Source: Escherichia phage PMBT16
DNA: 64,000 nucleotides
Direction: 5' to 3' (one strand)
Sequence record: PP554575
Positions 44,724-45,581 of the stretch are shown piece by piece. The translations under genes were made by a program, and so were the position numbers. Below the pieces are notes generated by a model. That model made no database searches, was not told the origin of the DNA, and worked only from the letters and a program-made list of their open reading frames with translations. Position 1 is the first letter of the stretch; every line of letters starts with the position of its first letter.

Positions 44724-45581
44724 TCATTTACCACAAATCTTCTTGTATACCTCTTCTACCGTGTCAAACACTTCAGGCCTGTAGTAGAAAAACTCAGTGC
44801 TACCGTCAAATTTTACAGGAAAGTTTATTTTATACTTGCTCAAGGCCTTATGCACAGATTTTTCTAAATCTACCATGTTTTGAGTTGATCCGCTCCATGT
44901 TTTTACTACGTGAAGAGTGTGGACACCTGCGCCAGATTTACGAGCACTGTTAAGCACCTCATTTTTCCTCCTGTGCATTTTAACGCATACACCGATTTTC
45001 ATAAGTGTTGGCACTTCTAAGTCATCAACCATAATGTAGAGTTTACCGTACTCATGAGATAAGAATCCATTTTGTGCGCATTTACAGCAGCCACGACCAC
45101 TTTTTAGGTTATTAGGTTTAGCAGACCACTTATACCCACAAATTTTGCACCTACATTGCACTTTTGTGTTATCATTGGCAATTTTCTCTAATATTTCTAT
45201 GTCTGGGTTGGCTTTGTGGATAATTGCAGCGTGCTCCTTATGGGTTAACGCTTGACTTTGCCCACGTCTTAAGTCATAGCACTCTGGGCAGCCGTTTCTT
45301 TGGTATAAGTGGTTTTCAGGGTATTGTTCAAACACACCGTGTTCAGGGCAAACAATTTTTACAGGCGTTCTCATGTTCGCATATTTGACTAATGAGTAAT
45401 CGTACTTGTCCCCATGAACAGCCATAGCCTCTTTTATGAACTCTTCAGTGTTCTTTTTCGCTGACCCACCACACCTTGGACAACCATGATTCTTGAAAGC
45501 ATGTGCCACAGGGGTTTGCCAGAACTCACCGTGCTCAGGACAAATTATACACACAGGTGTCTTGTTGTTTTTATACTCCAC
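44724..45581 (-). CDS. zinc-ribbon repeat protein with C-terminal GIY-YIG/T5orf172-like segment (possible homing-endonuclease-like)
   Basis: Three CPEHG...CP.CG-type repeats; C-terminal GKLYIMVDD...KIGV; GTG start; lies between nrdD and nrdG. Confidence 0.45.
   Translation of the reverse strand: MEYKNNKTPVCIICPEHGEFWQTPVAHAFKNHGCPRCGGSAKKNTEEFIKEAMAVHGDKYDYSLVKYANMRTPVKIVCPEHGVFEQYPENHLYQRNGCPECYDLRRGQSQALTHKEHAAIIHKANPDIEILEKIANDNTKVQCRCKICGYKWSAKPNNLKSGRGCCKCAQNGFLSHEYGKLYIMVDDLEVPTLMKIGVCVKMHRRKNEVLNSARKSGAGVHTLHVVKTWSGSTQNMVDLEKSVHKALSKYKINFPVKFDGSTEFFYYRPEVFDTVEEVYKKICGK

Follow-up and report, generated by a model that had tools for sequence, protein, structure and literature searches.

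Between nrdD and nrdG in Escherichia phage PMBT16 (sequence record PP554575) lies a minus-strand open reading frame (ORF) of 285 amino acids (aa), at positions 44724-45581 of the 64,000-nucleotide (nt) stretch analyzed here as a whole (the window). What is this gene, how did it come to lie there, and is it still active? The initial annotation, made from the sequence alone, had placed the ORF at exactly these coordinates and read it as a homing endonuclease inserted between the nrd genes. Our comparisons support that reading, both through a T5orf172 domain match and through a majority of insert-free alleles among relatives: the element is probably a free-standing homing endonuclease gene (HEG) of the T5orf172 type, and the copy in the window is most likely a decaying, probably inactive remnant. 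Judged by nucleotide identity, the phage is an rV5-like coliphage of the genus Vequintavirus (rV5-like myoviruses of E. coli), since the region around the ORF is 94-99.6% identical to Vequintavirus genomes, with phages nomine, naam, A51.2, naswa and inoa as the closest matches.

The domain content of the 285-aa ORF is, by profile comparison, far beyond chance. Pfam searches returned DUF723 twice (8.4e-12), CapR (2.6e-9), DUF4379 (3.7e-9) and, at residues 182-282, the T5orf172 domain (PF10544, which belongs to the GIY-YIG clan; E = 1.6e-7), all above cut-offs. The T5orf172 match reaches 32.2 bits, where the gathering score is 20, and spans profile positions 4-100 of 101. The profile search proposed in the initial annotation thus bears out the likeness to GIY-YIG/T5orf172 domains that had been seen in the C-terminal GKLYIMVDD...KIGV segment. 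The protein also matches PHROG 681 ("endonuclease", 1e-58). The MUG113 model scored 19.2 bits, under its cut-off of 22.3, and GIY-YIG itself (PF01541) was not among the Pfam matches at E<=1. Searches of NCBIfam and PADLOC gave no matches, and the protein therefore has no curated name and no tie to a known defence system. Its parts are as follows (pLDDT, predicted local distance difference test, from an AlphaFold2 model):

45459..45581, minus strand: zinc-ribbon module 1, DUF723 type (CxxC...CPRC), without its N-terminal helix in the window, pLDDT 60-79.
45264..45452, minus strand: zinc-ribbon module 2, DUF723 type (CPEHG...CPEC), from Pfam and module comparison, pLDDT 87-89.
45057..45263, minus strand: zinc-finger module 3, CapR/DUF4379 treble-clef type (CRCKIC...CCKC).
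44736..45038, minus strand: T5orf172 nuclease domain (GIY-YIG superfamily) with GKLYIMV, MKIG, R205, E240, H244 and GSTEFF (E263), from Pfam, invariant columns and fold.

Three CPEHG...CP.CG repeats had been counted at first. Two of them are of the DUF723 type, 52% identical to each other and following the pattern ...HGDKYDY...C(P)EHG.F...GCPxC, but the third is a CapR-type finger (CxCxxC...CCxC) that is only 22-25% identical to both DUF723 modules.

In an alignment of 36 sequences, M194, K195 and G197 (the "KIG" motif), R205, E240, H244, G260, E263 and F265 are invariant (numbers are those of the 285-aa form in the window; E263 is E288 in the intact 310-aa numbering). A homologue search by the nuclease domain alone gave at least 20 proteins and a shallow alignment. 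The AlphaFold2 model has a mean pLDDT of 86, with values of 90-96 across the C-terminal domain, which is predicted to form a beta-beta-alpha-beta-alpha core with the three-stranded sheet and flanking helices of the GIY-YIG fold; the top structural matches of the model are the GIY-YIG nucleases SLX1 and I-TevI. A profile-profile alignment of the 36-sequence family against an approximate sequence of the I-TevI catalytic domain gave a probability of 0.07. This is not significant, and we therefore claim no residue-level equivalence with R27 and E75 of I-TevI or with E180 of the nuclease Odn. Identity to the I-TevI domain (PDB 1LN0) is 9%, and I-TevI also differs in its opposite domain order and in being intron-encoded. 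A PDB sequence search with the family profile returned only weak DUF4379 and zinc-ribbon matches and no solved T5orf172 structure. Canonical GIY-YIG homing endonucleases of the I-TevI or Seg type have an N-terminal nuclease domain with Tyr in both motifs, whereas the 285-aa protein has it at the C-terminus and carries Lys in the second motif (MKIG). On these sequence comparisons, the protein belongs to the T5orf172 branch of the GIY-YIG superfamily, with a C-terminal nuclease, and is not a canonical N-terminal enzyme.

How widely the gene occurs was scored with a 301-bp probe across the empty rV5 junction in 118 related phage records. The junction between nrdD and the next small ORF is uninterrupted in 92 of them, slur16 included; 18 carry the window allele (allele A, 97-99% identical to the window) and eight carry five other alleles, found in WalterGehring and nom, in JEP1 and Mangalyan, in ECML-10, in phiWec189, and in SophiaRose and O157 typing phage 14. 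Phage naam, a carrier, is classified in the species Vequintavirus slur16 (International Committee on Taxonomy of Viruses), and slur16 itself has an empty site. The gene is therefore sporadically present at a fixed site with insert-free alleles among close relatives, as is typical of HEGs, and the 92 empty sites together with the T5orf172 match exclude the scenario that the initial annotation had named as fatal to its reading (relatives with neither insert-free alleles nor nuclease motifs).

The T5orf172 domain and the stretch directly downstream are common to all alleles, at about 75-78% nucleotide identity; the zinc-finger arrays differ:

Allele A and WalterGehring: two DUF723 modules and one CapR module.
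JEP1: DUF723-CapR-DUF723.
phiWec189: three DUF723 modules.
ECML-10: one DUF723 module and four CapR-like modules.
SophiaRose: four DUF723 modules.

In alleles B to F the gene follows directly on the native promoter of the intergenic region (TTGACA-18-CATATT in rV5), and the nrdD end is still of the rV5 type. The T5orf172 gene of about 390 aa in ECML-10 (at about 2500-3700 of the sequence compared) is unannotated, as the GenBank record has no feature at this site. Farther afield, a 179-aa one-finger homologue (68% identical) is present in the unrelated temperate phage mEp013, and tblastn detects T5.154 of phage T5 (residues 18-295, 26% identity, 2e-9).

Allele A is set apart by what came with it. 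Identity to rV5 is 95-96% outside 44689..45934, and inside it falls to about 63% (the nrdD tail) or to none; window positions 44689-45796 (1108 bp) stand in place of 67 bp in rV5. The following features belong to this block:

44689..45934, minus strand: introgressed cassette of 1.25 kb with a recoded nrdD 3' end, terminator, promoter and HEG, replacing the rV5-type nrdD tail and the 67-bp intergenic region.
45760..45934, minus strand: recoded nrdD 3' end, the last 58 codons (175 nt), covering the CPxCG zinc site and the RRVSGYL glycyl-radical motif.
45718..45760, minus strand: intrinsic terminator just past the nrdD stop and upstream of the HEG promoter, with a 7-bp GC-rich stem, T10 and an A-rich tract upstream.
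45684..45712, minus strand: sigma-70-like promoter TTGACT-17-TAGTAT, which came with the cassette and replaced the native TTGACA-18-CATATT.
45601..45645, minus strand: original gene start at ATG 45645, now a 14-codon dead-end ORF (MRRLTTEEFIEYTW*), the frame being broken by an 11-bp deletion.
44724..45581, minus strand: 285-aa ORF with a GTG start, probably the 5'-truncated remnant of a 310-aa T5orf172 HEG.

The left border lies within nrdD. Divergence from rV5 jumps at 45934 from about 4-5% to about 37%, such that the tail is 62.8% identical in nucleotides and the preceding 1 kb is 95-96% identical. The changes are mostly synonymous: CPxCG and RRVSGYL are kept, and the C-terminus reads …HVGNVDCCPLSK versus ...HYGSCGC in rV5. 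The right side shows no gradient of divergence, and the junction there falls just upstream of the ribosome-binding site of a 38-aa ORF. By blastn, the left flank of allele A (45655-45830, comprising the tail end, terminator and promoter) is present only in the 18 carrier records. The divergent flank is thus linked to the gene, as expected of a co-converted tract, and its restriction to the 18 carriers together with the multiple alleles are signatures of homing and co-conversion.

Compared among relatives, the recoded nrdD tract is a mosaic of three segments. The outer one (45873-45934) is of the window type in JEP1, SophiaRose and the empty-site phage Murica, the middle one (45830-45872) in JEP1 alone, and the inner one (45760-45829) in allele-A phages alone, with recombination breakpoints inside the tract in JEP1, Murica and SophiaRose. 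The outer segment in Murica could have been left behind when a HEG visited the site earlier, or it could be a variant of the target site that spreads independently. The nrdD 3' end in the window is, from these sequence comparisons, of foreign origin. Its donor was not found, as blastn gave just the 18 carriers and tblastn gave intermediate tails of the Murica type. At the corresponding site, a 141-kb metagenomic contig encodes an orthologue of 76% identity and shares the nrdD ending and the hairpin. Its tail tract is just 68% identical to the window in nucleotides, and the contig is therefore related to the donor lineage without being the donor itself.

The initial annotation had also given the gene its own promoter and terminator. 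The promoter stands (TTGACT-17-TAGTAT, 45712..45684). The hairpin with its T10 run (45748..45731; -16.7 kcal/mol, z = -3.7) is real as well, but it lies upstream of both the promoter and the HEG on the coding strand and therefore terminates nrdD transcripts, not those of the HEG. This nrdD terminator is present only in the 18 allele-A records. Downstream of the HEG we found merely a weak hairpin (44618..44602), inside the conserved small ORF, which we judged a chance match. The cassette thus appears to have rewired local transcription by adding a terminator after nrdD and a new promoter in place of the native one. The native promoter presumably served the small ORFs and nrdG, and since it is replaced, these genes and the HEG are presumably transcribed from the new one.

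These features suggest the following course of events. The intact 310-aa form would carry three zinc-binding DNA-recognition modules at its N-terminus, followed by a GIY-YIG-fold nuclease at its C-terminus. In a mixed infection, the protein would cut the insert-free allele in or near the nrdD 3' end, or in the intergenic promoter between nrdD and the small ORF, and repair of the break from the HEG-bearing genome would copy in the gene together with its flank. The synonymously recoded nrdD tail within that flank probably shields the carrier from its own nuclease, while the cassette would add a terminator to nrdD and a new promoter. The cassette may have entered an rV5-like backbone by such break repair, and the 11-bp deletion that followed would represent a late stage in the HEG life cycle. 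Free-standing HEGs at nucleotide-metabolism genes are familiar from phage T4, where SegG and MobE co-convert their flanks and the carrier is protected by target differences. The element described here resembles them as an intergenic, promoter-equipped selfish gene that is presumed to cut a neighbouring gene in phages without the HEG. In Seg proteins a canonical GIY-YIG domain stands at the N-terminus, and Mob proteins carry an HNH domain, whereas the element in the window encodes a T5orf172-type nuclease at the C-terminus, with Lys replacing the second-motif Tyr.

The 285-aa ORF is real but is not the whole gene, since the corresponding ORF of relatives has 310 aa and starts at an ATG matching 45645. 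The gene of naam, I29 and 15 further phages measures 933 nt (310 aa) and begins MRRLTTEEFIEKAQTIHGDKYDYFKVEYK...; these 17 of the 18 database copies run unbroken from residue 1 to residue 310, each in one tblastn piece. The window has lost 11 bp (AAAGCTCAGAC) at codon 12 (junction 45613/45612), a deletion absent from all 18 database copies. The frame from ATG 45645 therefore meets a stop after 14 codons (45601), and the window genome has no intact reading frame for the gene. The long frame has no ATG, its first possible start being GTG 45581. Starting there, module 1 is 25 residues short, including the conserved HGDKYDY segment. The frameshift makes the copy most likely a decaying one, non-functional or poorly expressed, and from its sequence we regard it as probably a disabled remnant that is no longer active. 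The copy of Shigella phage CM1 has its own frameshift, a 1-nt A insertion in an A run at codon 265 by which the invariant Glu is lost; this could be decay of a second allele or an artefact of homopolymer sequencing. Both frameshifts fit the cycle of invasion, fixation and decay of HEGs.

Some points weigh against an active homing history or against decay. Homing by this element is deduced from comparison, and the designation of R205 and E263 as the putative catalytic Arg and Glu draws on conservation and predicted fold. That a divergent contig has an orthologue together with this nrdD ending and terminator shows the association to be old, and the present distribution may partly reflect loss. 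The 285-aa frame is fully open with all invariant nuclease residues, such that a truncated product from GTG 45581 is possible, and the 11-bp deletion could be an assembly error. According to Barth, Dunham and Seed (2023, PMC10448857), homing of T5orf172 HEGs lacks experimental verification.

That the gene still functions, through re-initiation at GTG 45581 or coupling from the 14-codon ORF to give a 285-aa nuclease of perhaps altered specificity, seems to us somewhat unlikely. The open frame is 99.7% identical to naam residues 15-310, the AlphaFold model is confident from module 2 onward, and the stop of the 14-codon ORF (45601) lies 20 nt before the GTG. However, no Shine-Dalgarno sequence precedes this GTG, none of the 18 related copies has such an arrangement, and module 1 would be truncated. 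We also found no significant RNA structure at the HEG 5' end that would point to sequestration of the ribosome-binding site or to programmed recoding (z = -0.68).

We consider it rather improbable that the deletion is an assembly or sequencing artefact and that the phage has an intact 310-aa gene. The window is the only one of 19 known copies with this deletion and is otherwise about 99.7% identical to naam, but an 11-bp loss outside a homopolymer is atypical as a short-read or consensus error, and the CM1 copy shows that decay of such genes occurs. Decidedly improbable, in our view, is a role that is not primarily homing, either as a domesticated DNA-binding regulator (for example, a CapR-like repressor of the nrd operon promoter) or as an Odn-like nuclease turned on competing phages or satellites in marker exclusion. 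The repressor CapR and the anti-satellite nuclease Odn are documented domestications of the same domain set, the 285-aa protein has the CapR homology domain, and the cassette sits on the promoter region. The gene is missing, however, in 78% of close relatives and is therefore dispensable; the independent frameshifts in the window and in CM1 speak against selection for function, PADLOC gave no defence match for the protein, and a linked recoded flank with allele turnover is typical of selfish homing. Very improbable is an ancestral gene deleted in most relatives without active mobility: the orthologue in the much more divergent contig would fit it, but divergence rises abruptly from 4% to 37% at 45934 within an otherwise rV5-like nrdD, the left flank is restricted to 18 carriers, six different alleles occupy one site, carriers and non-carriers occur inside one species, and the empty sites have an intact native promoter and not a deletion scar.

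A T5orf172-type HEG in decay thus remains our preferred reading, and its family, its architecture and its association with ribonucleotide reductase (RNR) genes are already published. Barth et al. (PMC10448857) described T5orf172 HEGs with N-terminal repeated CapR, DUF723 or DUF4379 fingers and a C-terminal T5orf172 domain, which cluster near RNR and other essential genes and mark recombination boundaries. The 285-aa protein has the same architecture, its zinc-finger modules lying at the other end from the T5orf172 domain, and the locus shares the C-terminal nuclease, zinc-finger array, RNR-gene location, recombination boundary and array reshuffling. Unlike the genes of that study, from ICP1-like and other phages, the one described here belongs to a Vequintavirus of E. 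coli and its copy is frameshifted. The study does not contain the nrdD/nrdG site, its six alleles or the recoded nrdD tail, and does not mention "rV5"; our literature search found no paper specifically on the Vequintavirus nrdD/nrdG element. Odn (ICP1 Gp88), itself a T5orf172 protein, has been proven to cut DNA in a sequence-directed way that requires a conserved Glu (PMC8263062). It shares the T5orf172 domain, in which its conserved Arg and Glu would have putative counterparts in R205 and E263, but has a RepA_N DNA-binding domain and targets a satellite replication origin, whereas the element here has a zinc-finger array and is likely to target the cognate phage allele. T5.154, annotated as an endonuclease in the phage that gave T5orf172 its name, also occupies a HEG niche, flanked by the genes for the large terminase and the portal, but is distant in sequence and at another genomic site. 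Existing labels on orthologues are "phage T5, ORF172 domain containing protein" (I29), "DUF723 domain-containing protein" (NCBI) and "putative homing endonuclease" (the WalterGehring allele).

The genes of the nrd region all lie on the minus strand, in the order nrdB, glutaredoxin, nrdD, the 285-aa ORF, a 38-aa ORF, a 78-aa ORF and nrdG. The element does lie between nrdD and nrdG as first annotated, but it is not their sole separator, as two small ORFs also intervene:

45760..47898, minus strand: nrdD, 712 aa (Pfam NRDD, 4.9e-159).
44555..44671, minus strand: 38-aa Cys-rich ORF (MSSGIYKICKCGCRCNLRWCKALDDFIWHCPECDAEYL), conserved, with a strong Shine-Dalgarno sequence, directly downstream of the HEG.
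44167..44403, minus strand: 78-aa ORF (PHROG 3249).
43697..44170, minus strand: nrdG (Pfam Fer4_12, 6.9e-38).

We found no support for a gene on the plus strand of 44724-45581, where ORFs reach just 40-59 aa, and no paralogues of the 285-aa protein within the window. The 38-aa ORF occurs in every Vequintavirus locus examined and had no match in Pfam or NCBIfam; in GenBank it bears the label "putative anaerobic ribonucleoside-triphosphate reductase", and the 75-aa ORF114 of rV5 seems to be a mis-call of this ORF. The PHROG 3249 label of the 78-aa ORF, "putative minor capsid protein", is inherited from phage Rtp. This ORF is absent in I29, CM1, JEP1 and phiWec189, in which the small ORF adjoins nrdG. 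The nrdG of I29 is divergent too, with a single 217-nt stretch alignable at 86% identity, and this divergence together with the missing 78-aa ORF marks another mosaic boundary immediately to the right of the cassette. Just downstream of nrdG lies a sigma-70 promoter with a perfect 12/12 consensus (TTGACA-18-TATAAT, 43664-43693, minus strand) that corresponds to the annotated P118 of rV5. The nrdD gene is unbroken in the window and split in nomine, WalterGehring, JEP1, SophiaRose and the 141-kb metagenomic contig, by HNH or other homing-endonuclease, intron-like elements; the nrd region appears to be a multi-HEG hot spot in Vequintavirus-type phages. About 19-25 GenBank records of the MG0656xx series, labelled "Campylobacter phage" (host C. 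jejuni), are 96-98% identical to rV5-like coliphages here, and their host label looks doubtful.

For annotation, the findings mean that the window ORF is best described as a pseudogene-like remnant, that the nrdD 3' end is probably foreign, and that the "terminator" belongs to nrdD. For the family, the locus offers a clean and well-bounded example of a T5orf172 HEG, with 92 empty sites, six alleles, a delimited co-converted nrdD tail and two independently decayed copies. Such natural controls make it convenient for a first experimental test of T5orf172 homing, so far missing in the literature, and it could also be used to map what DUF723 and CapR modules recognize. More speculatively, and we consider this unlikely, the nrdD-nrdG site may record an arms race, with six HEG alleles that share one nuclease domain, carry varying DUF723/CapR arrays and face at least three nested, synonymously recoded nrdD-tail haplotypes. 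If array composition tracks target haplotype, the site would allow the "recognition code" of these zinc-finger modules to be read and would supply a scaffold for programmable nucleases.

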